DNA of 64,000 bases from an uncultured Verrucomicrobiota bacterium (lineage in GTDB: Bacteria > Verrucomicrobiota > Verrucomicrobiia > Opitutales > UBA9783), in assembly GCA_946186275.1 (NCBI GenBank), contig CAMHMO010000004.1, positions 20,616 to 84,615 of the forward strand, given 5' to 3'. Positions 3,526-62,579 of the stretch are shown here, one piece after another. Each line of letters begins with the position of its first letter. Position 1 is the stretch's first letter. Under the pieces are notes generated by a model. It was not told where the DNA came from, searched no databases, and worked only from the letters and a program-made list of their open reading frames with translations. The position numbers were made by a program, and so were the translations under genes.

Positions 3526-3710
3526 AAACTTTTCCTTTTACGGTCGCCGTTACAGAGTGACGTACCATGTATATCGGACAGTTTTGCCGTTTTTTCGACC
3601 CGACACTTCGAATTTTGCAATAAACGCCTCGGATAACGGTTTGTTGCCGTCTGCATTATGCGTATTCGGAGCCAGTTGGGTTCGCTTCAACGCCCGAAAG
3701 CGCATTACGG

Positions 3711-4487
3711 TTGAAAAAACGCAAAAAAAACGCCATTTTGTCGATGATGTTTCCTAAACGGTTTAAAGTAATCGGCGTGTTTGTCGTCGCGTCCCTGTTG
3801 CTTTCGCTCGGCGGCTGTCGTTATCGCGTCGGATTTCCCGTTGATTCGTACAACATCAAAACGATTTACGTCAAACCGACCGTCAAAGAAGCGTTGACGG
3901 CGCAATTGTCGGGCGATTTGACGCGACAGTTGGGCGAGGAAATTCTGCGCAACGGCTTTCTGCGTCTTGCGCCGTCAGACAAGGCCGATGCCACTCTGGA
4001 AACGACGGTGAGTAATTACAACCGCGGTATCAGCGTTGTGGACGAGGATGACGACGAAAAAGCAAAATCCTTGTCTCTCAGTGCCACCTGCAAATATACC
4101 CTGCGGGACAATCGCGACAGCAAGATACTTTCGAGTGGTTCCGTTTCGGCGAGCGTCGGCATTACGGCAACCACCAATGCGCAGGCGATTGAGTATCAGC
4201 GTGCTCCGCAACTGACGCGCGCTTTGGCAAAGCAGGTCGCGTCGCAGTTGCTGACGGCTTCGGGCAAGAGGATTACTTCGAAAGGCGCTGATGCAAAAGC
4301 CGATAAAGATACGGGAGAAAAGCTCGAAAGCAGAACCGAGGAAAAACTCTCCGCGAAATCCGTTGAAACAGAACCGTCGGAAGAAAGCGAGATTCAACCG
4401 TTAACCGAAGCATCGGAAGAGGAAACGTGTGATTTAAATCGGTCGGAACAATTTCCCGGGGACAAAGGTGAAATTCACAAACATTGA
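3711..4487 (+). CDS. Lipoprotein, LptE-like (LPS assembly), with an acidic disordered C-terminal tail
   Basis: It has a lipobox LSLGGC. The overall pattern (IYVKP...ADATLETTVSNY...SLSLSATCKYTLRD...) resembles the LptE fold family. The tail is E/S/K-rich. Confidence 0.45.
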   Translation: MKKRKKNAILSMMFPKRFKVIGVFVVASLLLSLGGCRYRVGFPVDSYNIKTIYVKPTVKEALTAQLSGDLTRQLGEEILRNGFLRLAPSDKADATLETTVSNYNRGISVVDEDDDEKAKSLSLSATCKYTLRDNRDSKILSSGSVSASVGITATTNAQAIEYQRAPQLTRALAKQVASQLLTASGKRITSKGADAKADKDTGEKLESRTEEKLSAKSVETEPSEESEIQPLTEASEEETCDLNRSEQFPGDKGEIHKH

Positions 4488-11915: not shown

Positions 11916-12395
11916 ATGAGGGATATAAAGTCTTATTTGAGGTTTTTTGTATTGGCGGTCATCTGCTGTGTTTTGGGCGGATGCGGCAGTGCACCGAAGA
12001 TGACGTCGCTGCAACTGAAATCCCTGCAGGAACGGGAATTTGAGAGCAATAAAAAAACGGTCTTTGCCAGCACCGTGTCTGTGTTGCAGGATTTGGGCTA
12101 CCTGGTCAAAACGGTGGACTATAAGGGCGGATTGATTACGGCAGAAAGCCCGTTGGAAGTCAGTCGCAATTATCTGACGTGGAACAAGAGCTCCAAGCGA
12201 ACCGGCGTCAGTGCCTTTGTGGACGAGTTCCCTAAAAAAACGACCGTTCGTTTGAATTTCGTCGTCAATGACGTTTCCACGCACTGGTTCAGCAGTGATA
12301 CAACCGAGGAAACCGTGATTCTGGATCCGAGCGTATATCAGGAAATTTTCGACAAAATCGGCGAAAGTATCTTTCTGCGCGAAGGGATGAATTAA
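11916..12395 (+). CDS. Lipoprotein of unknown function (paralog A)
   Basis: 159 aa with a lipobox VLGGCGS. It is clearly homologous to the next locus (KKTVFASTVSVLQDLGYLVKTVDYKGGLITAE...YQEIFDKI). Confidence 0.6.
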   Translation: MRDIKSYLRFFVLAVICCVLGGCGSAPKMTSLQLKSLQEREFESNKKTVFASTVSVLQDLGYLVKTVDYKGGLITAESPLEVSRNYLTWNKSSKRTGVSAFVDEFPKKTTVRLNFVVNDVSTHWFSSDTTEETVILDPSVYQEIFDKIGESIFLREGMN

Positions 12396-12398
12396 ACG

Positions 12399-12984
12399 TT
12401 GACCTTGACGAAATGCGGGATAAACGGCATACACGGAACCGTGTTTTGTAGCGTGAAGAAGGTGAAAATCACGAAGTTTCCTCTGCGTTTTCTTGTGCCG
12501 GCGTTGCTCTGCTGTGTTTTGGGCGGGTGCGGAAGAACCTCGAGGGTAACGCACGAAGATTCGGATTCGTTTCGAAAACATACATTTTGGAGTGACAAGA
12601 AGACGGTTTTTTCGAGTACCGTTTCAGTTCTGCAGGATATGGCGGTACGTGGTGAGAACGACGGATTACGCGAGCGGTTTAATTACGGCGGAAGGGTTGA
12701 TGAGAGAAGTCGGTAAAAATTGGATAACACGCAATAAAACGACCGAACGGGTATTCGTCAGCGCAATTGTGGAGGAAATTCCGGGTACGGGATCGAGCAT
12801 TCGTTTGAAACTTGTTAAAAACAGAGCTTCGGAGCATTGGTTTTCAAGAGATTCCGTTTCGGAAGATGTTGTTCGGGATCCGAAATCGTATCAGGAGATT
12901 TTTGACAAAATCGAGCAAAAAGTTCGATCCATCCAGCAGATACAGCTTTATCAGTTGCAACAGGGAAACAGGCGCAATGGATAA
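12399..12984 (+). pseudogene. Frameshifted paralog B of the preceding lipoprotein gene
   Basis: Two overlapping ORFs (12399..12716 and 12592..12984) together reproduce the paralog A sequence. The first gives the lipobox VLGGCG and KKTVFSSTVSVLQDM. The second, in the +1 frame, gives YVVRTTDYASGLITAE...YQEIFDKI. The junction is at about 12642-12646 (ATG GCG G TAC), which has one extra base relative to paralog A (TTG GGC TAC). Confidence 0.6.
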
Positions 12985-13064: not shown

Positions 13065-13754
13065 TTACCGCCTTAAAAAAACATGCTTTGAATAGCTTTT
13101 GGCAATATCGACCGCCCGTTGAAGGCGATGTTCTTCTTCCAAACGTTCGAAAGCATTCTGCGGTTCTGCTTCTCCGCGACAGCGTTGCAGGTACCAACGA
13201 CTTTCTTCGTTGATCATCCGACCGGTGTCGTGCAACGCATCTTCGTCTGCCCAAAACGGCGACAACGTGGTTCGGAACTCGTACGTTACGGGATGACGTT
13301 GCAACAGAAAACGAACGGAAGCATGCAGATTTGTGAGTAAAGAAGGAGCTTCGTTCGGATGCGCCAATTTCAAATAACGTTTCGGCGAGGTTTTTAAATC
13401 CATCGCAACATAATCGACATCTGGAATAACGGATTTCAAAACCTCCGAACGACTGCCGTTGGTGTCGAGCTTTATTTTTAAATTCAGAGCTTTAAAATGT
13501 TCGATCAGTTGAGTAAGAACGGCTGGTTGTAACGTCGGTTCGCCGCCGCTGATGCACACGCCCGTTAAAAGTCGTCGTGCATCGTGTAAATAAGCTTCGA
13601 TCTGCCCCAACGTCCAACCGTTTTGTTTGGCATCGGCTTCCAGATTTTGATTGTGGCAATAGGGACAGTGAAAATTACATCCGGGGATAAATACAACGGC
13701 ACAAACTTCACCGGGATAATCCACCAGTGAATGTTTCAGAAAGCCGAATTTCAT
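13065..13754 (-). CDS. nrdG: Anaerobic ribonucleoside-triphosphate reductase activating protein (radical SAM)
   Basis: 229 aa with the GCNFHCPYCHN cluster motif. It lies downstream of nrdD. Confidence 0.9.
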   Translation of the reverse strand: MKFGFLKHSLVDYPGEVCAVVFIPGCNFHCPYCHNQNLEADAKQNGWTLGQIEAYLHDARRLLTGVCISGGEPTLQPAVLTQLIEHFKALNLKIKLDTNGSRSEVLKSVIPDVDYVAMDLKTSPKRYLKLAHPNEAPSLLTNLHASVRFLLQRHPVTYEFRTTLSPFWADEDALHDTGRMINEESRWYLQRCRGEAEPQNAFERLEEEHRLQRAVDIAKSYSKHVFLRR

Positions 13755-13969
13755 ACCCCCTTTATTCTATGATTTAAGACAAAATTGCGGTCATTATCTT
13801 TGAGAGAGAAGAACAACGCCCCCATTCGAAGCCGCTCGGCAACCGCGATCGACGTTCGGAGCTCTTCGATTACTCCACGTTACACGGTATTAACGAGAAC
13901 ATTCCCTCTGAAAAAACGCACCTCTTCACGTGCGAAGCTTCACGCGTGCGTTTCCGTTCGCGCAACCGC

Positions 13970-16492
13970 TCAGCTTGCCATGCGGATACGTTCCTTCATT
14001 TTGTCCGTATCGTAAATGACTTCCGTATGTTTTCCGACCAACACCAAAGCGGGTAAATTCCGAACGTTGTACTTTCTTGCAAGATCCAAACCCGCCTCTT
14101 CGGAGGTATTCACATAGGTACCCGCGAAATGTTGTTCGACGAGATACGGCTTCATCGATTGGCACTTGATGCAGGTATCGCTGTGGAAAAATAAAACGGA
14201 CGGTTTTTCGGAAGCATTCGAAGCGTTTTTGTTCCCTTCGACGGCATCCTTCGAAAAGAGCATTCCATCGGAAGATGTTTTCCCGCAGACATCGTTTTTG
14301 GATGACCTGTCGGACGTTCCGCAGGTGCACTCCGAAGTTGTACCTCCCGAAGCTTCCGCGCCGCACGAACTTTGCTCATGCCCGCCGCACCCGCAGGCAA
14401 ACGGCGCGCATTCGCCGGGCGGGACAGAATGCGCGACATCGTACGTGACGCGTTGCTTGAATTCCTCCTTTTTACCTTTATTCCAGAATGCGACCGCACG
14501 ATAATACCCCGTAATACGGCTGTAGACTTCCATTTCGCTGCCGCACTTCGGGCAAAAATCCTGTCGCCCCGCCAATCGTCCGTGGTTCTCGCACACCGAA
14601 AACGTCGGGGAAATCGAAACGTACGGAATGCGGAAGTTTTCGACGATTTGGCGCACCAACGTACGGCAGGACTTGGCATCCGGCAACGATTCGCCCAAAA
14701 ATACGTGGAAAACCGTGCCGCCGGTGTACTTGGTTTGCAGACTTTCCTGCTGTTTCAACGCTTCAAAGACGTCTGCCGTATAATCGACCGGCAGGTTGGA
14801 AGAATTCGTATAGTAGGGGTCGACGGTTCCCGATTGAATCATGTTCGGGAATTTTTCCTTGTCGATCTTCGCCAAACGATAAGACGTGCCTTCGGCGGGC
14901 GTGGCTTCCAAATTGTACAAATTGCCGGTTTTTTCCTGAAAATCCTTCAATTTTTCCCGCATGTGCACCAGAACTTCCTCCGTGAAGGCATGCCCTTCGG
15001 GAGTGGCGATGGACTGATGCAGGAAATTGAGACAGCATTCGTGCATGCCGACCAGCCCGATGGTCGAAAAGTGATTGTTGAAGTGCTTCAGGTAGTGCTT
15101 CGTGTAGGGGAATAAACCCTGCTCCATCAGCTTTTCGATGGTGCGCCGCTTGCATTCGAGCGAATCCTTGGCGAGCTCCATCAAATCGTCCAGGCGTCGG
15201 TAAAAATCCTCTTTATTGCGGCTCAAATAGCCGATGCGCGGCATATTGAGGGTCACGACGCCGATGGAACCGGTGAATTCGTCCGCGCCGAACAGCCCGC
15301 CGCCACGCCGCCGCAGTTCGCGCTTATCCAGTTGCAACCGACAGCACATGCTGCGAACATCCGACGGATTGAGGTCGGAATTGACGAAATTTTGGAAGTA
15401 AGGTGTGCCGTATTTGGCGGTCATTTGGAACAGCAAATCCGCGTTTTCGCCGTCCCAATTAAAATCTTTGGTGATGTTGTAGGTCGGAATGGGATAGGCA
15501 AATCCGCGTCCGTCGGCGTCGCCCTCCAGCATGACTTCCAAAAACGCGCGATTGATAAGGTCGATTTCCGCCTGACAATCCTTGTAACACAGATCGCTCT
15601 CTTTACCGCCGATGACCGCTTTTTTATCCGCCAAATCGCTCGGGCAGACCCAATCGAGCGTAATGTTGGTGAACGGCGGTTGCGTTCCCCAGCGGGACGG
15701 CGTGTTGACGCTGAACACAAAACTCTGAATGTGTTGCTTGACTTCGTCGAACGATAGACCGTCGTTTTTCACAAACGGCGCCAGGTAGGTATCGAAGCTC
15801 GACAGCGCCTGCGCACCCGCCCATTCGTTCTGCATCGTCCCGAGGAAGTTAATGATGTGCCAGATGGCGGTCGAAAAATGTTTCGCCGGCTTGGAGTTAA
15901 TCTTCCCGCGAACACCGCCGAAACCCTCTTCCAACAGCTGTCTTAAACTCCATCCGGCGCAATAACCGGAAAACATCGATAAATCGTGCAGGTGAAAATC
16001 GCCGTTCTTGTGGGCGTCGGCAATCTTTTTGTCGTACACCCGATGCAGCCAGTAGTTAGCGGTAATCGCCCCGGCGTTGTGTAAAATCAGTCCGCCGACG
16101 GAGTAATTGATACTGCTGTTTTCGTTGACGCGCCAGTCGCTTTGGTTCAAATAACCGTCCATCGTCTTTTCGATGTCCAGCACCAGAGCTTTGCCTTCGC
16201 GCAGGCGTTCGTGTTGATGACGATACAAAATATAAGCTTTCGCCACGTCGCCAAAATGTTCCTCCATGAGCGTCTGCTCGATAATGTCCTGAATTTCTTC
16301 GACGGCGGGAATGGTGCGGGCGTGATAGCGACGATTAACGGCATCCGTCACCTGATCCGTGAGGCGCAACAGCGTCTCCTTCGAATGCGGGCTTTGCGTC
16401 GCCAAAAACGCCTGTTGCAGGGCGTTGAAAATGCGCTCTTTTTGGAACGGAACAAACGTACCGTCGCGTTTAATAATGGTCTGAATGGGCAT
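13970..16492 (-). CDS. nrdD: Anaerobic (class III) ribonucleoside-triphosphate reductase with a C-terminal Cys-rich linker and thioredoxin-like domain
   Basis: 840 aa. It has an N-terminal ATP-cone (IIKRDGTFVPF), the Zn-ribbon and glycyl-radical region CPKCGSEMEVYSRITGYYRAV, and then about 150 extra residues ending in a thioredoxin-fold-like segment with CIKC. Confidence 0.9.
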   Translation of the reverse strand: MPIQTIIKRDGTFVPFQKERIFNALQQAFLATQSPHSKETLLRLTDQVTDAVNRRYHARTIPAVEEIQDIIEQTLMEEHFGDVAKAYILYRHQHERLREGKALVLDIEKTMDGYLNQSDWRVNENSSINYSVGGLILHNAGAITANYWLHRVYDKKIADAHKNGDFHLHDLSMFSGYCAGWSLRQLLEEGFGGVRGKINSKPAKHFSTAIWHIINFLGTMQNEWAGAQALSSFDTYLAPFVKNDGLSFDEVKQHIQSFVFSVNTPSRWGTQPPFTNITLDWVCPSDLADKKAVIGGKESDLCYKDCQAEIDLINRAFLEVMLEGDADGRGFAYPIPTYNITKDFNWDGENADLLFQMTAKYGTPYFQNFVNSDLNPSDVRSMCCRLQLDKRELRRRGGGLFGADEFTGSIGVVTLNMPRIGYLSRNKEDFYRRLDDLMELAKDSLECKRRTIEKLMEQGLFPYTKHYLKHFNNHFSTIGLVGMHECCLNFLHQSIATPEGHAFTEEVLVHMREKLKDFQEKTGNLYNLEATPAEGTSYRLAKIDKEKFPNMIQSGTVDPYYTNSSNLPVDYTADVFEALKQQESLQTKYTGGTVFHVFLGESLPDAKSCRTLVRQIVENFRIPYVSISPTFSVCENHGRLAGRQDFCPKCGSEMEVYSRITGYYRAVAFWNKGKKEEFKQRVTYDVAHSVPPGECAPFACGCGGHEQSSCGAEASGGTTSECTCGTSDRSSKNDVCGKTSSDGMLFSKDAVEGNKNASNASEKPSVLFFHSDTCIKCQSMKPYLVEQHFAGTYVNTSEEAGLDLARKYNVRNLPALVLVGKHTEVIYDTDKMKERIRMAS

Positions 16493-54540: not shown

Positions 54541-54754
54541 GATATTTTTCGTTGTTTGGTTTCCCGAAACGTTGTTGCGCAAACGGAACCGTTCCGTTGC
54601 CTGCGGTAACATTCGAAGGTATTTCATACATCGGTCGAGATTTAAAAATTTATCAAAAAATAATTTTTTATTTTATACGTATCGACCGTAAGCGATGTTT
54701 TTCACGAAAATAATTGCGACGGCGGCGTTTCTTTGTTCCTTTGGAAGCAAGACG

Positions 54755-55249
54755 ATGGCGAAGATTGATTTGGAGGTGGTGAAGCGCATTTTGAAGCGCG
54801 CGGATTTGGAAAGTTCCGTCATGAGCGAGATTTTGGGCGAACTGCAATCGGCGGTGGCGGATGCGGCGTCGGAAGCCGACGAGCCGAAGGTTGCCCCCGA
54901 AAAGAAACAATTCATCATCGTGGTTGCCGATAACGACGGTTTATTAACGGACAAAGAGATGGTTGGTTGGGTGTTGCAGTTGCCGGAGGAAGACGACATG
55001 ACATCGGTGTCGGAAAAGTTGCTGAAAACCGCCAAGTCGTTTAATTTAAGCAAAAAGGGGCGAAAGCATCCGGTGGAGACGCTCGGTGAGTTGTGTGAAT
55101 ACGTACCGTCGCGCATTTTTAAAGAGCAAAAGTTGTCGTTAAAGACCAAAGTCCCCGTGTTGGTGGTGCCGATGGCGAATGCGTTGGAATTGGATGCGGT
55201 TTCGCAATCCAAAAGGACGTTGGACGACAATGATGCGGAGGCGTTTTGA
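54755..55249 (+). CDS. Small acidic hypothetical protein
   Basis: 164 aa from the ATG at 54755 (MAKIDLEVVKRIL) and D/E-rich. It is divergent from the effector-like gene pair. I recognise no family. Confidence 0.5.
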   Translation: MAKIDLEVVKRILKRADLESSVMSEILGELQSAVADAASEADEPKVAPEKKQFIIVVADNDGLLTDKEMVGWVLQLPEEDDMTSVSEKLLKTAKSFNLSKKGRKHPVETLGELCEYVPSRIFKEQKLSLKTKVPVLVVPMANALELDAVSQSKRTLDDNDAEAF

Positions 55250-55291
55250 GAAAACCTGTCTTTGAGATTGAATTTTTAAAACATAAACATC

Positions 55292-56050
55292 ATGGAAGAA
55301 GCGAATTGCGAAAAAAACAAAGCCTGCGGTTGCGGCGATGACTGCGAATGTAACTGTTGCGACTGCGGCTGCTGTTGCGAGATGAGCGCGCCGACGTCTT
55401 TGGTTGGGCGGAAAGCGCCGTGTTTTACGGCTCCCGCCGTGTTGGAAGGTACGGAGGTTGTTGAGCATTTTTCTCTGTCAAAGTATTTGGGGCGGAAGTA
55501 CATTGTACTGTTCTTCTACCCGAAAGATTTCACCTTCGTTTGCCCGACCGAACTGCACGCGTTCCAAGATGCCCTGCCGGAATTCGACAAGCGCAACACG
55601 CATGTGATTGCCTGTTCGACCGATACCGTCGAGAGCCATTATGCGTGGCTGCAACAGGCGAAGTCGCAGGGCGGTGTGAAGGGCATCATCTTTCCGATGG
55701 TTTCGGATGTGAATAAAACCATCGCCGCGCGTTACGGCGTACTCTCGGGAACGTATTACATCGAAGACGGAGAATTGAAGACCTGCCATTTCGATGCCGA
55801 CGGCGAGTGCCGGGAAGGCGGCACATTGGTGGCGTATCGCGGGCTGTTTCTGATTGATAAAAAGGGAATTGTTCAACACCAGGTGGTCAACAATATGCCC
55901 CTGGGACGTTCCGTGCAGGAAACCCTGCGCATGATCGACGCCCTGCAACACTTCGAGCAATACGGCGAAGTTTGTCCCATTGATTGGCACAAAGGTAATG
56001 CCGCCATGAAGCCCGATGCGGATGGATTAAAAGGATATTTTTCGAAGTAA
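55292..56050 (+). CDS. ahpC: 2-Cys peroxiredoxin (AhpC/Prx1 type) with a Cys-rich N-terminal extension
   Basis: It has FFYPKDFTFVCPTE (peroxidatic Cys) and a C-terminal GEVCP (resolving Cys). It is preceded in frame by MEEANCEKNKACGCGDDCECNCCDCGCCCE. Confidence 0.85.
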   Translation: MEEANCEKNKACGCGDDCECNCCDCGCCCEMSAPTSLVGRKAPCFTAPAVLEGTEVVEHFSLSKYLGRKYIVLFFYPKDFTFVCPTELHAFQDALPEFDKRNTHVIACSTDTVESHYAWLQQAKSQGGVKGIIFPMVSDVNKTIAARYGVLSGTYYIEDGELKTCHFDADGECREGGTLVAYRGLFLIDKKGIVQHQVVNNMPLGRSVQETLRMIDALQHFEQYGEVCPIDWHKGNAAMKPDADGLKGYFSK

Positions 56051-56324
56051 GTCTGTTGCGGAGACCATCGAAGGGCGTTGATAAAACAATGTGCTTCGAT
56101 GATTTATCCATGCAGGCGGGTAGTGTTTTTGTCGTTTTGCCTCGTATTGTACGGGTGACGGTTGGGGTGTGCGCCTCCGCTCGTTTGTGTAACCCGACCG
56201 CGGGTGATTGTTGGTGTATTGTAGCGAAGCGGGTTCGTTAAAAAAACGGCGCGGTTTTATAAATTGCGCGGGGTTCTTTTACGTTTGAACACAGCCGTGT
56301 GAGATGAGAAAGTAAGATCATCTC

Positions 56325-58724
56325 ATGGCGTTTCCTCCTTCACCTCCATCGGATGCCGAAGCGCGGCGGCGATTTCGGGTTGAGATTGATAAAGACTTTT
56401 CGGTCACGGCTCCGGCGGGCGTCGGGAAAACGCATGCGCTGGTTGAACGCATTGCGATCCTGGCGGAGTTGCAACCGCAGCGTTTGCCGGGATTGGTGGT
56501 TATTACTTATACCAAAAAAGCCGCCAATTCCCTCAAACAACGCGTATATGAACGGTTGCGATACGGCGACGATGTTGTCCGTACGCTGTTAGACCAAAGC
56601 TTTTTCGGAACCATCCACTCCTTTTGTTGGCAACTGATCCAAAAAATCGAAGAAACGCCCTATGAATTATTAAAGGACGATACCGATGTACGGGAGCAGT
56701 TTTTGGCGTCTTTAAATTTGGAAGAGCCCGATTTTGCGTGTTTTCGAAATCTGTTTCGTTTCCTGGACGTCGATGAACTTTTGGATGTCGTAAAGAGCGA
56801 CGGGTCGGCAACCGATGGTACGGACGACATAACGGGCGAAGGCGTCTGCACCGTCGATCTGTCGGAAATTTTCAATTTTCAACCGAAACGAAAAGATCCG
56901 CGGGTACTTAAAAATATCGAGGCAACAAAGAAAATCCTTCGACAGTGGTTATCCGTTTATCAAAACACGCAACGACCGTTGGAATTGCCCGCGTGCGAAA
57001 AAGGCGGAAAGGATTTTGAGAACATTTTTTTTGAAACCTTTCGTCCGTTTTATCAGCAATTACATGCGGAAGCAACGGCGTGCGGTCGGTTGTTGCAACA
57101 ACGTTATTCAGAATTTCGGCGCGAATACGGTTATCTCACGTATGATGATTGTGTTGTGTTTGCGCAACGCATTTTGGAAACCGATGAAGCAAAGACGTTT
57201 TATCAAAAGAAACCGCTGTATATTCTCCTGGACGAAGCGCAGGACACCGATCGCGCGCAGTTTCGTTTCCTGCAAACACTGATTGCCCTGCATCCGGGCA
57301 ACCGCTTTTCGATGGTCGGCGATCCGCAACAGTCTATTTACGGTACTCGGGCGGATGTTCGGGATTATGTGGAGCTTCATCAATCTCTTGTGCAGTCGAA
57401 ACGTTGCGAGGAGCTTGTTTTTTCGGAAACCTTCCGCTGCTCGCCGACGGTTGTGTCCGAATTGAATGCGCGCTTCCCGAAGATTTTCAACGATCCGAAG
57501 CAGGTTGAATATGTCCCGTTGCATTCGTCCGTTGGGCACAACGGTTGCGTGAAGGAAATCACGGTTCCGTACGAAAGCGAAACAGGGGAAGTTGCCAAAG
57601 AGGATGCGGTTGCGCTTGAAGCGCGTGTGCTGTCGAATTTTTTAACCGCTTATCTGCAACAACATCCGCGCGATTTATCCGACATTTGCATTTTATCGCC
57701 GCGCAACGACTGGTTGCGGGAGTTAAAGGAACCTTTGGAAACGTTCGGTTGGAAGCTGCAACTGCATTCGGAGCCGACGACTGGGCGCGACAATGCGCTG
57801 TTTTGTAACATCCTTGCCGCAATCCATTGCATCAACTTTCCGCAGGATACGTTCGAAGAAGCGGGCTTGCTCCGTGAAACTTTCGGTTGTTCCGATGAAG
57901 CGTTGGTGTATGTGTTTAATCCCGATCGGGTGCGTCGGACAAACGATGCGGAGCCGTTAAAAGGCGATTGTTCGGAAGAGCGCTGGCAGGGCGCGTCGAC
58001 GATTGACGACCTTTTCGGCGAGCAATCGTCATTCGCCTTGGAACGACAGACAAACTTTGTATTGTCGACGGGTGCGCATCGGGGAAGCCCGTTACAGAAT
58101 ATCTTACAATTCCCACCAAACGCTCACATAACGGGCGAAGTCAAAGCCGCGCAAAATGTACGGCGTCGTTGGCGGAAAACATTGGAAGAAATTTCGGAGC
58201 AGTCGCTGTGTGCCGGAACGGCGCGATTGATTGAATTTTTTAGGGCATTGGTCCCGCCGATGCCGACGGATGCGTATTTTGAAGAGATTTTACTTGAAAC
58301 GGCATTTCAAACACAACAAGTCGGGCAGTCTTGGTTGGCGTTGGAACGGCGTTTTCGGGCGCATTTAAACGAAAAAGCCGAAACGGAAGAGAAAATTCAG
58401 TCGGATGCGTTGCAGGGATTTTCGTGCCACAAAGCGAAGGGGTTGGAATGGAAGACGGTTGTTATGCCGTTTTTTGACCGCCCCGTTCGGTATCAAACAC
58501 CGCATTACCCCTGCGTGTACCGCGGGCGAATTTTGTGGAACAAAAAGGATGCCGAATGTTCGGAGCTCGCTTCCGATCGTCGACGCGAACTACAACGCTT
58601 ATTGTACGTTGCCTGCACGCGTACAAAGGAGGATTTGGTTCTTATGCGCGATGACGCGCTTTGGGGGAAGAGAGATGTCGGTGTGTCGTTGGGGGATTTG
58701 TACGATGCTTCGTGTGAAGTGTAG
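56325..58724 (+). CDS. UvrD/Rep/AddA-family superfamily 1 helicase
   Basis: 799 aa. Motif I is APAGVGKTH and Ia is TYTKKAA. It also has FGTIHSFC, motif II LLDEAQDTD, motif III VGDPQQSIY, FRCSP, and motifs V-VI HKAKGLEW...YVACTRTKEDL. No nuclease domain is visible. Confidence 0.8.
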   Translation: MAFPPSPPSDAEARRRFRVEIDKDFSVTAPAGVGKTHALVERIAILAELQPQRLPGLVVITYTKKAANSLKQRVYERLRYGDDVVRTLLDQSFFGTIHSFCWQLIQKIEETPYELLKDDTDVREQFLASLNLEEPDFACFRNLFRFLDVDELLDVVKSDGSATDGTDDITGEGVCTVDLSEIFNFQPKRKDPRVLKNIEATKKILRQWLSVYQNTQRPLELPACEKGGKDFENIFFETFRPFYQQLHAEATACGRLLQQRYSEFRREYGYLTYDDCVVFAQRILETDEAKTFYQKKPLYILLDEAQDTDRAQFRFLQTLIALHPGNRFSMVGDPQQSIYGTRADVRDYVELHQSLVQSKRCEELVFSETFRCSPTVVSELNARFPKIFNDPKQVEYVPLHSSVGHNGCVKEITVPYESETGEVAKEDAVALEARVLSNFLTAYLQQHPRDLSDICILSPRNDWLRELKEPLETFGWKLQLHSEPTTGRDNALFCNILAAIHCINFPQDTFEEAGLLRETFGCSDEALVYVFNPDRVRRTNDAEPLKGDCSEERWQGASTIDDLFGEQSSFALERQTNFVLSTGAHRGSPLQNILQFPPNAHITGEVKAAQNVRRRWRKTLEEISEQSLCAGTARLIEFFRALVPPMPTDAYFEEILLETAFQTQQVGQSWLALERRFRAHLNEKAETEEKIQSDALQGFSCHKAKGLEWKTVVMPFFDRPVRYQTPHYPCVYRGRILWNKKDAECSELASDRRRELQRLLYVACTRTKEDLVLMRDDALWGKRDVGVSLGDLYDASCEV

Positions 58725-58781
58725 GTAGTTTGAAAGCATCCGATATTTGCGTTTCGTTGTAAAATTCTTTAAATTACAATT

Positions 58782-59123
58782 GTGGATTATAGAAATTTTT
58801 TACAAAAAGCGGAAACTTTTTGCGGGCAATACGGTTTGACGTTGGCGCAGGCGGTATGCATTTTGTCGGCAATTGTCGGACTGGTATGTTTTTTAAGGCG
58901 TTTTCGTTTAAGCCGAAAATCGCTTTTCTCGCCGCACAAACTGAAAATTTTGGAATCGAAATCGCTCGGTAATCGGCAATTTTTACTGGTCATTTCCTAC
59001 GAAAGCGAGAAATTCCTCCTCGGTGTTTATCCGAACGGCATGCGGTTTTTGTGTAGATTGGGCGCTGATGAAAACGTTGCGGCAAAAACGGAGCCGCCGC
59101 ATCCGAATATACAGACACTTTGA
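58782..59123 (+). CDS. FliO-like small membrane protein (type III export apparatus family)
   Basis: 113 aa with a GTG start. It has a single TM helix followed by a basic patch (AVCILSAIVGLVCFLRRFRLSRK), then LKILESKSLGNRQFLLVISYESEKFLLGVYPNGMRFLCRL, which is colinear with the FliO core (..LKI..S..LG.R..VVVV.V....LVLGVT...I.LL..L). Confidence 0.5.
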   Translation: MDYRNFLQKAETFCGQYGLTLAQAVCILSAIVGLVCFLRRFRLSRKSLFSPHKLKILESKSLGNRQFLLVISYESEKFLLGVYPNGMRFLCRLGADENVAAKTEPPHPNIQTL

Positions 59124-59534
59124 AAAGCCTCGCAAAAAGAAGTGGCGCAAAAAAAACGGCAGGAACGAGTGTTGCGGGTGTCTGCCCTTTTAAAAAAGAT
59201 TGCCGGCATAAGGTACTGCGGATGTTCCATCACCTTAAAAAAAGGAGTATGAAAGAATGAGGTGTTGCTGATGTTTTTGTTCTTTAACAAAGCATATGGG
59301 CGCGAAGTACGGCGACGGTTTTTATCTTTGCAAATAAAATTGGTAAAATAACGGATCACGGGAGCCCCCTTTAAACAGGATAGGGCGGAACGAGTTTCTC
59401 CGAAAAACCGAACGGTGTTACTTCTTCCTGTCGGAGTACTTTTTGTATTTTCTTATGTATTTTTATACGTACGAAGGCGGTGGCTCATTGCTCTTAAACA
59501 AAAATTTTAAAAAAAACGCAAAATTTTAGAAAAT

Positions 59535-59563
59535 TTGTAACTTTTGAGCCGTCTTATTATAAT
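59535..59563 (+). promoter_or_regulatory. Near-consensus sigma70 promoter of the aldolase gene (TTGTAA-17-TATAAT), 6 nt from the ATG
   Basis: The sequence is TTGTAA(59535-59540)-17 nt-TATAAT(59558-59563)-AAAACC-ATG(59570). Confidence 0.5.
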
Positions 59564-59569
59564 AAAACC

Positions 59570-60619
59570 ATGAACAAGCACATTGAACGATTTTTGGAGC
59601 AGGACGGCGGACGGCTGGCAAAGCACGTCTGCAAGACGATTGCAAAAGAGAAATTACAACTGCCGGGAGCGGATTTTATCGAGCGCGTTTGGATGAACAG
59701 CGACCGTTCGAACGCCGTTCTCAATAACATGGCGCGGTTATATCACCACGGGCGTTTGGGCGGAACGGGTTATTTGTCGATTTTGCCGGTCGACCAGGGT
59801 GTGGAACATTCGGCGGGAGCCAGTTTTGCACCGAACCCTGATTATTTTGACCCGGAAAATTTGGTGCGCTTGGCAATGGAGGGCGGTTGCAACGCGATTG
59901 CGTCCACTTACGGCGTCTTATCAGGCGTTTCACGGAAATATGCGCATAAAATTCCGTTCATTGTTAAACTCAATCACAACGAACTTTTAACATACCCGAA
60001 TAAATTCGACCAAATTTACTTTGCCGACGTGGAGCAGGCGTGGGATATGGGAGCGGTTGCGGTCGGCGCGACGATTTACTTCGGTTCGGAAGAATCGAGC
60101 CGTCAAATCGAGGAAACGGCGGCGGCATTTGCCCGTGCGCACGAATTGGGATTGGTGACGATTTTGTGGTGCTATTTAAGGAATTCGGCATTTAAAGCCG
60201 ATAAAAATTACCACACGAGCGCGGATATGACGGGACAGGCGAACCATCTCGGCGCAACGCTCGGCGCGGATATCGTGAAGCAGAAGTTGCCGACGAACAA
60301 CGGCGGTTTTAAGGCGTTGAATTTCGGGAAAACGCACGAAAAGGTTTATTCGGAACTCACGACCGACCATCCGATCGATCTGACGCGCTATCAGGTGGCG
60401 AACGGCTACATGGGGCGTGTCGGTCTGATTAACTCGGGCGGAGCTTCGGGGAAAGATGATTTTCACGATGCCATCGAAACCGCGCTGATCAATAAGCGTG
60501 CCGGCGGAACGGGGCTCATTCTGGGACGGAAAGCCTTCCAGCGACCGTTCAAAGAAGGCATCGAGTTGCTGCACGCGGTTCAGGACGTCTATTTGGAGCC
60601 GTCGATTACCGTGGCTTAG
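59570..60619 (+). CDS. fbaB: Class I fructose-bisphosphate aldolase, DhnA/FbaB family
   Basis: 349 aa. [29 protein letters not shown] and IVKQKLP are typical of the FbaB/DhnA TIM-barrel aldolases. Confidence 0.8.
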
Positions 60620-60662
60620 AATTTGTTATTCACAGTTTGTTATTGTTTTTCATTGTTATTCG

Positions 60663-60699
60663 CAAAACGGCTGCCGAAAGGCGGTCGTTTTGCGGTTTT
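60663..60699 (+). terminator. Rho-independent terminator after the aldolase gene
   Basis: The hairpin is CAAAACGGCUGCC-GAAA-GGCGGUCGUUUUG (13-bp stem including two G-U pairs, GAAA loop), followed by CGGUUUUA. Confidence 0.5.
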
Positions 60700-60827
60700 A
60701 GAGGGCGTTTTGTCGGATTTTTTAATCGTGCTGGAAACGTTTTAAAGTCACTGTTTTATCCGTTTCAACGATCGTTTTTTAGCGTTGAGATATAGGTCGA
60801 AATCGACGACAATTCCTGTGAGAAGGA

Positions 60828-62579
60828 ATGGTCGAAAAAATGCAACTGAACGGAAGTCGACAAAGGCAGGCAGAACAATTACCGCCGAAAAGGCTTCACG
60901 TTAAAATGGATCATTGCTTCGGGATTGGATATTTGGAGCATACGTTCGATTTTACAAAGGGTAATGTTGTGACCGTCTATGCGCACAACGGTGTCGGCAA
61001 AAGTTCGTTTTGCAAAGCAATGGAGTTGTACGCCGAAGGGCGTACTGAGGAAATTGTGGATGAATTGTACGGAGAAAGACAAAAGGTTCCGACTTTCGGG
61101 TTACTGAAGTATTCAGGATTAACAGATTATTACGGTTCTCAATCTGAATACACCGAACGTTTCATTCCCACTCAAGGCACCATCGAAGTAACGGATGAAG
61201 ACGGTGATGTTGAACCAGAGTGCATAAAAGTATTTGGAAGGAACTTTGACAAAACTTTCTCCGCTGATGGAATGAGAGACGCACTATGGAATGAGGTTGC
61301 TTTTGTGCCGTGTAACGGCATGTCGAATGAATCACATCTTATCAGTTTCGGGACAAAAGTGTTTCAGCAACGGTTTGGAATGCCCGTGTGGTTTCGTACA
61401 TACGAAGAGCGAAAGGGAAACGGTGCCGAGTATAAGCTTTTGTGTGATATTGAAACGACCAAAGATGAATGGGAGCATCCGTTTTCATTTGAGGAATTCC
61501 AAAAAGTCGCAAGCAACGGGGAAAGACGCGCCGTTAACTTTTTGTATTTTTTAACGCAACTGACTGAGTGTGCAATCGAACAGTTGAAGGGCGTTTCAAA
61601 TGCTTCGCTGGATGTGCTGAAAGGCTATGTCATCCTGGATGATATTGCCGATATGTTTGACAGCCGCAATCGGATGGCAATGGTCGAAATTTTAAGAAGT
61701 TTGACGGCAAGAACTCCGAATGTTCGTTGGATCTTTTTTTCTCACAACTATGACGTCTATCGTTATTTATCGAATCGTCTTTGTGTAGCGGAAGGTAATC
61801 GTTTTATTGCAACGAAGCGAACGGAAGGTTCCGAAAATATCGTTACTTTATCGCGTGATTATTATGCGGGCGAGGGCGATCCGTTTCGGAATTGGGCAAA
61901 AAATATCGATAACAAGAAAAAATTCCTTGCGTTAATTCCCTTTATGCGACAGTTGGTTTTATTCACACGAGATGAAGGTTGGAGTACGTCGGACAGTAAA
62001 GACAATCACGCAAAGAACAAGGAAATTTTAACGCATTTGTTGCATTATTTCCCCAACGAGAAAGAAGGAAAAGGTACGGAAGCGATTACCGTCGAAGAAA
62101 TTGTCGGGATCTTTAAAAACTACATCGATTTTGATGAAAGCAAAATAAATTTCAGGGATCGAACCGTATTTGATTTGTTGTTGGATACGTGCAATACGAT
62201 TGTCGAAACGAAAGAAGAAGCGCAGGATAACGAGAAAGTACTGCGGGTAACCGAAATTGATTTGGTCAATAAGGTTGTTTTGGCAATTGGGATCCGTTTA
62301 TTGGCGGAAAAATATATGTTGGAGAGAGGTGCAACAGCCGGCGGGAACTCCAACCGTACGTATGCGTTATACGATTCTTTTGTGAAGAAATACGGAAATA
62401 ACAATCTTCAACCAGTAGATATGCTTTTTAAATTAAGCTGTTGTGTACCTTTTCTCCCCGATTTTATCCACATGAATTCCTTTCACTACGAACCGTTGAT
62501 GGATTTGGAGGGAACGGAGTTGGCAGGGTACTACCGATATTTCAAAACATTAACAGAGGCAGAGAACGAGCATGCATAA
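60828..62579 (+). CDS. PrrC/RloC-like (AAA_13-type) ABC ATPase with a putative C-terminal nuclease region
   Basis: 583 aa. It has Walker A YAHNGVGKSS, the signature-like SNGERRAVNFLYFL, Walker B YVILDDIADMFDSRN and the H-loop FFSHNYDVY. The C-terminus has IRLLAEKYM (R-x3-E) and FIHMNSFHYEP. Confidence 0.7.
   Translation: MVEKMQLNGSRQRQAEQLPPKRLHVKMDHCFGIGYLEHTFDFTKGNVVTVYAHNGVGKSSFCKAMELYAEGRTEEIVDELYGERQKVPTFGLLKYSGLTDYYGSQSEYTERFIPTQGTIEVTDEDGDVEPECIKVFGRNFDKTFSADGMRDALWNEVAFVPCNGMSNESHLISFGTKVFQQRFGMPVWFRTYEERKGNGAEYKLLCDIETTKDEWEHPFSFEEFQKVASNGERRAVNFLYFLTQLTECAIEQLKGVSNASLDVLKGYVILDDIADMFDSRNRMAMVEILRSLTARTPNVRWIFFSHNYDVYRYLSNRLCVAEGNRFIATKRTEGSENIVTLSRDYYAGEGDPFRNWAKNIDNKKKFLALIPFMRQLVLFTRDEGWSTSDSKDNHAKNKEILTHLLHYFPNEKEGKGTEAITVEEIVGIFKNYIDFDESKINFRDRTVFDLLLDTCNTIVETKEEAQDNEKVLRVTEIDLVNKVVLAIGIRLLAEKYMLERGATAGGNSNRTYALYDSFVKKYGNNNLQPVDMLFKLSCCVPFLPDFIHMNSFHYEPLMDLEGTELAGYYRYFKTLTEAENEHA

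Follow-up and report, generated by a model that had tools for sequence, protein, structure and literature searches.

Ribonucleotide reductases (RNRs) of class III provide the DNA precursors of strict and facultative anaerobes, including those of much of the gut microbiota. Within this class a thioredoxin-using subtype has been defined by a third cysteine and a glutamate, some of its members also having a methionine (Aurelius 2015, PMC4493059; Lundin 2015), and the role of Cys125 of the T. maritima enzyme is described in the first of these studies. The finger-loop sequence MCCR is that of the majority of double-cysteine class III RNRs, and these have components for the use of either formate or thioredoxin (Burnim et al.). 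In class I, a glutaredoxin that is fused to the NrdB protein of Facklamia ignava is an efficient reductant of the holoenzyme (PMC6187632). Here we analyse a class III RNR that carries a redoxin of its own. It is encoded by the nrdD gene in 64,000 nucleotides of DNA from an uncultured bacterium of the Verrucomicrobiota (order Opitutales; contig CAMHMO010000004.1, positions 20,616 to 84,615), which we call the window. An earlier note on this DNA had described NrdD as continuing beyond its glycyl-radical segment into a Cys-rich linker and a thioredoxin-like domain containing a CxxC motif. Coordinates are those of the window, and all features of nrdD lie on the minus strand.

The catalytic core and the C-terminal redoxin of NrdD

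The nrdD gene (13970..16492, stop codon included) is an open reading frame (ORF) of 840 aa that is uninterrupted along its length, with no internal stop. It encodes in order an ATP-cone, the barrel of a class III RNR, the Zn site and glycyl-radical segment, a linker and a redoxin domain. The ATP-cone, the allosteric activity domain (residues 5-95; 16208..16480), is matched by Pfam PF03477 (E 2e-23) and is confident in the AlphaFold2 model. [quoted passage not shown] The protein scores well above the cut-offs of two curated NrdD models, with 539 bits against 326 for TIGR02487 and 1120 bits against 548 for NF006126. The continuation of about 150 aa past the glycyl-radical segment is as the earlier note had it, i.e. 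152 aa comprising residues 689-840 (13973-14428), and all the peptide strings that it quoted are present in the translated ORF.

The positions of the active site were read from an alignment with the NrdD proteins of T. maritima (4COI) and P. copri (8P23), and conservation in the core was counted over 121 sequences, i.e. the query and its 120 best full-length matches. Cys178 (15959..15961) is the conserved βA cysteine and aligns with Cys125 of T. maritima. The finger loop contains the double-cysteine sequence Met382-Cys383-Cys384-Arg385 (MCCR; 15338..15349), at which T. maritima has CCRL and P. copri MGCR. Glu529 (14906..14908), within the sequence NLEATPAE, is the candidate for the glutamate that the redoxin-dependent subtype has in its active site; it is aligned to Glu495 of T. 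maritima, and the MGCR-type enzyme of P. copri has leucine at the equivalent place. Each of these elements is invariant in the 121 sequences, and the active-site glutamate is also present in all seven loci of a separate alignment. We take T. maritima Glu495 to be the catalytic glutamate, as reportedly identified by Wei et al. 2014.

The redoxin-dependent subtype (NrdD2 sensu Wei et al.) is recognized, by criteria taken here from secondary sources, from the extra cysteine of an xCCR finger loop and from the active-site glutamate, and the enzyme of the window has both. Judged by its sequence the core is thus of the double-cysteine plus glutamate class III type. The earlier note had asked whether the active site bears a Cys/Glu or a formate-type signature; it is the former that is found (MCCR with Glu529) and not MGCR. 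Turnover of the enzyme may be driven by a redoxin and independent of formate.

The Zn site (Cys634, His637, Cys647 and Cys650) and the glycyl-radical segment EVYSRITGYYR are encoded at 14450..14593. The radical glycine is predicted to be Gly662 (codon at 14507-14509), in a motif of the RxxGY type. Cys634, Cys647, Cys650 and Gly662 are invariant, and His637 is conserved in at least 90% of 57 homologues. The metal site in this clade of NrdD is consequently written Cys-x2-His ... Cys-x2-Cys (in the region 14594-14441); that of phage T4 NrdD has four cysteines.

The redoxin domain occupies residues 764-840 (13973..14203) and has the topology β1-[CxxC]α1-β2-α2-[cis-Pro]β3-β4-α3, on the evidence of AlphaFold2 models, Foldseek, profile comparison with the PDB, and Pfam. 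In the full-length AlphaFold2 model, made from an alignment of 57 sequences and confident over the NrdD core, the elements are β1 (766-770), α1 (775-786), β2 (792-795), α2 (799-807), β3 (815-818), β4 (824-826) and α3 (829-839). The redox-active motif Cys774-Ile-Lys-Cys777 (14162..14173) is at the N-terminal end of helix α1, and Pro814 (14051..14053) is at the predicted cis-proline position immediately before β3. Neither cysteine varies in an alignment of 40 tails or among 57 fused homologues, and Cys774, Cys777 and Pro814 are the sole invariant positions of the tail over the 57 homologues, which come from several phyla. Pro814 is the proline of the LPA sequence after the CxxC motif, which the earlier note read as being of cis-proline type.

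A model of the tail alone has a pLDDT (predicted local distance difference test) of 87.4 and a pTM (predicted TM-score) of 0.75. Among the top 50 PDB matches listed by Foldseek nearly all are thioredoxins or proteins of thioredoxin fold (probability 1.00, TMq up to 0.74). By sequence, the matches of the single tail in the PDB are likewise nearly all thioredoxin-fold proteins, the best having an E of 5e-4, and a profile built from the 40 tails matches P. furiosus PDO (7e-10), the glutaredoxin-like protein of P. horikoshii (8e-10), the thioredoxin Mj0307 (1e-7) and NrdH (3e-6). The Pfam scores of the 152-aa tail are borderline (Thioredoxin_2, 26.7 against a cut-off of 27; Thioredoxin, 22.5 against 23.5). 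When trimmed to an 81-aa domain it passes for Thioredoxin_2 (28.8 against 27) and is just under for Thioredoxin (23.4 against 23.5). Among the 40 tails, 23 are matched by Thioredoxin_2, 14 by Glutaredoxin and 14 by Thioredoxin.

The tail is therefore modelled as a minimal thioredoxin fold of ~77 aa, of the size of glutaredoxin, NrdH or Mj0307. The domain foreseen in the earlier note as thioredoxin-like does have that fold in models, profiles and Foldseek comparison, so that its concern that the tail might not model as one is answered; yet it is a minimal domain and not a canonical thioredoxin. Assignment as TrxA was rejected, with 19.6 bits against 96.8 for TIGR01068, the sequence T-C-I-K-C in place of WCGPC, and absence of the N-terminal β-α unit. 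Membership of the NrdH or glutaredoxin families, which the domain resembles in size and genomic context and whose characteristic motifs are CVQC and CPYC, was rejected too, no model reaching its cut-off (GlrX_YruB, 16.8 against 88.6) and the profile match to NrdH (1H75) having an E of only 3e-6. None of the NCBIfam equivalog cut-offs is reached by the tail domain. The dipeptide within the CxxC motif is I-K or V-K in the clade of the query, and P-N elsewhere.

The ratio of non-synonymous to synonymous substitution (dN/dS), calculated pairwise between the query and two relatives (L011 and L012), is 0.01-0.025 in the core, 0-0.09 in the ATP-cone, 0.05-0.08 in the redoxin domain and 0.26-0.50 in the linker. 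The value for the redoxin is comparable to that for the ATP-cone, so that purifying selection maintains it with the strength seen for a domain of known function.

Between the radical domain and the redoxin lies a fast-evolving linker of 77 aa (residues 687-763; 14204..14434) that is predicted to be disordered (pLDDT ~30). It contains seven cysteines, at positions 696, 701, 703, 711, 723, 725 and 737. Four of these are invariant in the 14 distinct tails of the species-level cluster (sequences of 90% identity), while the other three come and go. The four form two CxC(G) motifs, Cys701-Gly-Cys703 (14384..14392), which is also present in P0001, and Cys723-Thr-Cys725 (14318..14326). Among the non-cysteine positions of the linker, 22 of 77 columns are invariant in the cluster. 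The linker thus appears relaxed, yet short of neutral.

Sister sequences of Opitutales type also have CxC motifs in their linkers. In a wider set of 58 fused proteins (see below) 27 have at least one linker cysteine and 14 have CxC or CC, and the frequency of cysteine is 2.9% in the linkers compared with 1.4% in the cores. These 27 rule out a Cys-rich linker that is confined to the Opitutales clade, although the very Cys-rich form is richest in the lineage of the query. Since only 27 of the 58 have any, the linker cysteines are recurrent but dispensable. The Cys-rich linker of the earlier note is thus real in this protein, with its seven cysteines, but is neither universal nor a defining part of the design.

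Cysteines are found close to the C-terminus in relatives with other tails. In 40 of the 44 relatives with MCCR and glutamate but no redoxin there is a cysteine near the C-terminus, and in 37 of the 44 it is within the last 12 residues. In the short-tailed set P0047-P0121 a lone cysteine almost always lies 3-8 residues from the end, most often six (e.g. ...ETCLAS or ...VCEVTIPV). A terminal cysteine follows the last helix in 40 of 66 fusions of the most common type (type A, below; ...KKCVSMGS or ...ECL). It is absent from the query and from P0002, P0003 and P0012.

Distribution of the fusion and of the redoxin in nrd loci

The length of the tail past residue 686 is bimodal in the 121 closest NrdD proteins, being 39 aa or less in 44 and 81 aa or more in 77. 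All 77 carry a C-terminal redoxin, which in 66 is of type A, with the signature FxFFYSDxCxxC ... [LV]P[AST]. The other 11 (P0069, P0077, P0085, P0092, P0094, P0100, P0104, P0107, P0113, P0118 and P0119) have a second, unrelated-looking CxxC domain, KLFTxPNCSKC ... YYRQIR ... LPVLL, which in P0069 had been pre-annotated as the glutaredoxin-like PF05768. The existence of this second domain suggests that redoxin tails have been gained more than once. Sources of the fusion among the closest matches include Opitutales, Puniceicoccales, Margulisbacteria, Spirochaetota, Bacteriovoracaceae and Epsilonproteobacteria.

When each GTDB species was represented by one genome, a scan gave at least 599 related loci, of which the best 80 were analysed in a ranking that favours long matches. 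The barrel, GRD and redoxin form a continuous fusion in 58 of these and are split between genes in 13. The fused loci include that of Ruminococcus turbiniformis CLA-AA-H200 and many from Lachnospiraceae and Oscillospiraceae. The finger loop is MCCR in all 80, and the glutamate motif was found by pattern in 78 and by alignment, as NLEATPGE, in the other two. Seven loci had at one stage been classed as unfused; this was discarded when a divergent redoxin of Firmicutes type, overlooked by a clade-specific hidden Markov model (HMM), was found in them.

A precomputed redoxin domain of Pfam is present on only four of the 120 closest matches. Most of the tails fall below the Pfam cut-offs, and this would explain why a survey of glutaredoxin-RNR fusions in RefSeq in 2018 found a single 'Glutaredoxin:NrdD'. 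A word-indexed search with the tail alone also returned one relative only, where full-length and exhaustive HMM searches returned many; given the limited sensitivity of the index, the single relative is not a sign of rarity. The architecture is therefore common yet hidden from domain-based censuses, and annotation pipelines and RNR classification miss the fusion. The C-terminal thioredoxin-like domain, the Cys-bearing tails and the split NrdD are undescribed in analyses of RNR insertions and extensions and in a 2026 review of glycyl-radical enzymes, a search that did not cover the papers and thesis of Wei. The NrdD-redoxin fusion is thus widespread in databases, annotated generically and uncharacterized. 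The earlier note, whose author was not aware of any characterization, was right in that respect; the survey of homologues that it proposed finds the fusion to be widespread rather than singular, and one case had been recorded in 2018.

The same redoxin is found in other arrangements within nrd loci. An exhaustive HMM search with the tail profile over 1.84 billion representatives gave 354 matches at E ≤1e-10, of which the top 149 were sorted. Forty of these are stand-alone redoxins of 75-110 aa. At least 72 are complete proteins of ~150-210 aa comprising a helix, a glycyl-radical segment, a linker and the redoxin; the N-terminal helix has a modal length of 26 aa, and is followed by EVYxRIVGYYRxVxNWNKGKREEY without the cysteines of the Zn site. 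All six genomic contexts of tail-family redoxins that were examined are nrd loci. In L001 and L006 a barrel ending just past CPxC and a helix is followed by a GRD-redoxin gene, with nrdG next in L001. L002 has the order barrel, 56-aa GRD peptide, 83-aa redoxin, nrdG. The redoxin precedes nrdG in L003, follows an unsplit nrdD in L004 and follows nrdR in L005. This pattern of fusion and fission (a Rosetta-stone argument) is classic evidence for a dedicated partnership between the redoxin family and NrdD.

In L002 (1-759) the stand-alone glycyl-radical peptide of 56 aa, MKKIRCEVFSRVVGYYR..., and the 83-aa redoxin (P0132) are encoded by genes that overlap by 4 nt, and the split point lies inside the second cysteine pair of the Zn site. 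In the split class III RNR of the Spirochaetota the nrdD barrel stops just past the Zn-site sequence CPKC and an added helix. A second gene (150-210 aa), with its own ribosome-binding site, then encodes a helix, EVYxRIVGYYR, the linker and a CPNC redoxin, and nrdG is next. Comparison with the unsplit P0062 indicates a precise insertion of helix-stop-start-helix. Split loci are L001 (1-979), L006 (1-977), L007 (5837-8576), L015, L021, L022 and eight further GTDB loci, with the proteins P0125-P0383. There are at least 1602 clusters at E ≤1e-10, and P0311 of Treponema berlinense is found in 474 collection blocks. Cultured strains in which the split occurs are T. bryantii XBD1002, T. lecithinolyticum ATCC 700332 and Treponema sp. 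OMZ 840.

A gene resembling thioredoxin reductase is located directly downstream of, or overlaps, a fused nrdD in four loci of Firmicutes: L034 (6537-7439), L038 (5439-6359), L041 (6390-7301) and L064 (6336-7271). Against the 343-bit cut-off of TIGR01292 the gene of R. turbiniformis passes with 358 bits and that of L041 is just short with 336, while the calls for L038 and L064 are based on the CATCD motif only. This adjacency points to a path from NADPH through thioredoxin reductase to the fused redoxin.

Probable function of the tethered redoxin

The reading that we prefer, with a probability of roughly 0.6, is that the fused redoxin is a dedicated, tethered reductant of the disulfide formed in the active site during turnover. 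In such a mechanism NrdG would install the radical on Gly662. In each turnover the nucleotide would receive two electrons from Cys178 and one finger-loop cysteine (Cys383/384), which would be left as a disulfide, and Glu529 would serve as proton shuttle. The 77-aa redoxin, on its disordered tether of ~75 residues, would then re-reduce this disulfide by means of Cys774 and Cys777, either directly or through the two conserved Cys-x-Cys pairs of the tether. The redoxin would itself be recharged by a reductase whose gene lies elsewhere, the likeliest being an NADPH-thioredoxin reductase. Redoxin-type chemistry is favoured because a finger loop with two cysteines, together with the glutamate, is the signature in the literature of thioredoxin-dependent class III RNRs. 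The direction and the partners of electron flow, a role for the linker cysteines and independence from formate are inferences, as is the hard-wired electron path of the earlier note. Genomic association speaks for such a path, with redoxin genes in nrd operons and thioredoxin reductase genes after fused nrdD.

It is possible by analogy that the flexible cysteines are relay thiols, comparable to the C-terminal shuttle of class I and class II RNRs. In the thiol oxidase Erv2p a flexible arm with Cys-Gly-Cys is such a disulfide shuttle. Binding of a metal ion by the two CxC motifs of the linker is an equally open alternative to a relay.

Several points count against the preferred reading. No thioredoxin reductase is found in the window, in which 30 large ORFs were scanned, or in the operons of the Opitutales relatives. 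A folded domain of 9 kDa cannot enter the closed barrel to meet the disulfide, and a relay through linker cysteines cannot be general because these are missing in about half of the fused proteins. Met382 is kept in the finger loop, so that use of formate could still be possible (Burnim et al.). Every NrdD sampled is of the MCCR plus glutamate type, and the comparison with MGCR consists of three solved enzymes, which end right after the radical domain. Finally, NrdD-redoxin fusions are known from their sequences alone. As to access, the finger loop (residues 384-403) is also of low confidence in the AlphaFold2 model, and it is suggested that the active-site cysteines can become exposed.

As the main alternative, the redoxin might serve activation or maintenance, keeping the cysteines of the Zn site and GRD reduced for NrdG or for re-insertion, while formate or a free redoxin feeds catalysis. 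The retention of Met382 is compatible with formate chemistry, and according to an older observation thioredoxin activates E. coli NrdD (Lundin 2015). Moreover, the redoxin travels with the glycyl-radical segment and never with the barrel, being fused after the GRD here and forming part of the detached GRD subunit in the spirochaetes. This location would be expected in any event, since the N-terminus has the ATP-cone and the C-terminus is the only free one; in L002, moreover, the redoxin gene is separate from that of the GRD peptide. All the carriers have the third cysteine and the glutamate of disulfide-forming chemistry, and a thioredoxin reductase gene directly after a fused nrdD suits a stoichiometric supply of electrons better than it does occasional repair. 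We regard such a role in activation or maintenance, in place of turnover, as unlikely. A function of the tail as a redox sensor or protective module, i.e. in oxidative stress or protection against O2, perhaps with a linker that is metallothionein-like or binds Fe-S, and not as an electron donor, seems to us quite improbable. An invariant CxxC with a cis-proline is what catalytic dithiol-disulfide exchange typically shows, different phyla conserve the redoxin domain whether or not the linker has cysteines, and stand-alone homologues occur inside nrd operons. The linker is certainly rich in Cys, Gly and Ser, with two invariant CxCG motifs, and is predicted to be disordered, which apo metal-binding peptides often are; the enzyme is intrinsically sensitive to O2, and the window has no reductase gene close by. 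However, a metal role for the linker would fit alongside a reductant function of the redoxin and would not replace it.

Lastly, the fusion could have been created by a missed stop, a frameshift or a chimeric assembly with a downstream redoxin gene. Separate redoxin genes do exist right after nrdD (L004), and an error of one base could fuse them. Such an artefact is extremely improbable. The identical 840-aa protein occurs in independent sources. NCBI, ENA and Logan have it on a contig of 105 kb, and its cluster at 90% identity has 31 members from many assemblies that keep the frame, with 12 of the 15 members listed spanning 833-842 aa. The dN/dS of the linker is below 1 and its motifs are invariant, and continuous fusions are found in 58 GTDB species representatives. 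The unbroken architecture is likewise shared by dozens of homologues that are more distant. The missed stop or frameshift against which the earlier note had cautioned is accordingly absent. One of the cluster members, MBR1844034.1, is annotated merely as 'ribonucleoside triphosphate reductase [Opitutales bacterium]'.

We may go further and speculate, while holding it to be unlikely, that the glycyl-radical segment and the redoxin together constitute a mobile 'cartridge' of redoxin-dependent class III RNRs, attached in the enzyme of the window and separate in spirochaetes. Were this so, the enzyme of the window with its CxC tether would accept electrons from thioredoxin reductase as a self-contained unit, and in spirochaetes a subunit of ~19 kDa would dock on the barrel by means of two helices that complement each other. 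A radical domain destroyed by O2 could then be replaced without remaking a barrel of 700 aa. There is a parallel for a swappable radical domain in GrcA (YfiD), which rescues pyruvate formate-lyase. In the spirochaete enzyme class III would have its first RNR of two subunits, and the arrangement would be the first evidence of a built-in electron relay in class III.

The fusion bears on the choice of reductant, formate or redoxin, by the MCCR majority of the double-cysteine enzymes, and offers an answer by genomic logic. A self-contained fused construct would provide a handle on how the buried disulfide of the class III active site is re-reduced. The split enzymes of cultured Treponema should be a tractable system for the docking of the GRD and its replacement after damage by oxygen.

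Surroundings of nrdD in the window and comparison with known systems

The gene for the activating enzyme of the class III RNR, the radical SAM protein NrdG (13065..13754, minus strand), is downstream of nrdD. It scores 157.5 bits with TIGR02495 (NrdG2; cut-off 131) and is also matched by Radical_SAM and Fer4_12. The spacer between nrdD and nrdG is 215 nt in length and contains a terminator-like hairpin followed by a run of T (13917..13934, minus strand), 36 nt past the nrdD stop. This is a consensus match only, and the count of promoter- and terminator-type sites, this hairpin included, is that expected from shuffled sequence. No Rfam family was matched around nrdD and nrdG, and no obvious NrdR box was seen in the 114 nt upstream of nrdD, for which no formal search was made. 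In the relative L009 the gap between nrdD and nrdG is just 10 nt, compared with the 215-nt spacer and hairpin in the window. In the sister Opitutales genome GCA_017479315.1 (L012) an acetyltransferase gene (3550-3993) lies between nrdD and nrdG, and a canonical thioredoxin of 104 aa (156-470; PF00085) is encoded divergently just upstream of the fused nrdD.

Elsewhere in the window, 11916-12395 and 12399-12984 (both plus strand) are tandem paralogues of a small lipoprotein-like gene with the lipobox LGGCG and without a match in Pfam. The second copy can be read only if the frame is switched near 12640-12660, with ...KKTVFSSTVSVLQDM in one frame and ...YVVRTTDYASGLITAEG... in the next; it is either a pseudogene with a frameshift or the result of an error in sequencing. 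A cluster of ATPase and helicase genes at 49797-62579 lies in an otherwise housekeeping region (gyrBA, tgt). It contains an AAA_15 ATPase (49797-51446, plus strand; E 1e-78), a protein of 710 aa that has no match in Pfam (51458-53590, minus strand), a UvrD-like helicase (56325-58724, plus strand) and an AAA_13-like protein (60828-62579, plus strand), and from these sequences it may be a defence island with Gabija-like components.

The NrdD of the window resembles the thioredoxin-dependent class III RNRs (N. bacilliformis NrdD; T. maritima, 4COI and 4U3E) in having the βA cysteine, the extra finger-loop cysteine, the glutamate and an NrdG activase. It shares little identity with the T. maritima protein (E 2e-46 by phmmer, over 529 residues). 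The thioredoxin-dependent NrdD2 enzymes have SCCR without the methionine and a C-terminus soon after the glycyl-radical segment, and are served by a free thioredoxin, whereas the enzyme of the window has MCCR, a tether and an attached redoxin. NrdD3 of Methanosarcina barkeri (Wei et al. 2015, as cited in secondary sources) is reported to be similar in being a class III RNR with a co-encoded small redoxin of glutaredoxin or NrdH size; it differs in having QCCR without the glutamate, a separate redoxin, and ferredoxin:disulfide reductase as donor.

There is a further likeness to the C-terminal cysteine shuttles of class I and class II RNRs, including the Cys-rich Zn-finger of NrdJ (Loderer et al. 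2017, PMC5704485), in which a flexible or appended cysteine element relays electrons from a redoxin to the buried disulfide of the active site. The CxC pairs of the linker, and the lone terminal cysteine of the short-tailed relatives, could be analogues of such shuttles. They lack sequence homology with them, however, and in the enzyme of the window the redoxin is itself part of the tail. An external disulfide has not been demonstrated in class III (Lundin 2015). The tail domain has the βαβαββα fold of ~80 aa seen in P. furiosus PDO (1A8L), the P. horikoshii protein (1J08), Mj0307 (1FO5) and NrdH (1H75).

The only fusion of NrdD with a redoxin that we have found in the literature is the 'Glutaredoxin:NrdD' of Lachnospiraceae bacterium TWA4 (WP_082039398.1), an entry in Table S1 of the 2018 survey in which the position of the domain is unstated (PMC6187632), and which was listed but never analysed or assayed. 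It may have the same C-terminal architecture as many of the Lachnospiraceae loci found here. That survey had one case, compared with the 58 fused loci among 80 in the present analysis. The closest functional precedent, by analogy, is the Grx::ATP-cone::NrdB protein of F. ignava (Rozman Grinberg et al. 2018, PMC6187632), where a redoxin is genetically fused to a component of an RNR. It differs in belonging to class I, with the redoxin at the N-terminus of the radical-generating NrdB; that redoxin is a glutathione-dependent glutaredoxin of GrxC type, and its acceptor is the C-terminal cysteine pair of NrdA.

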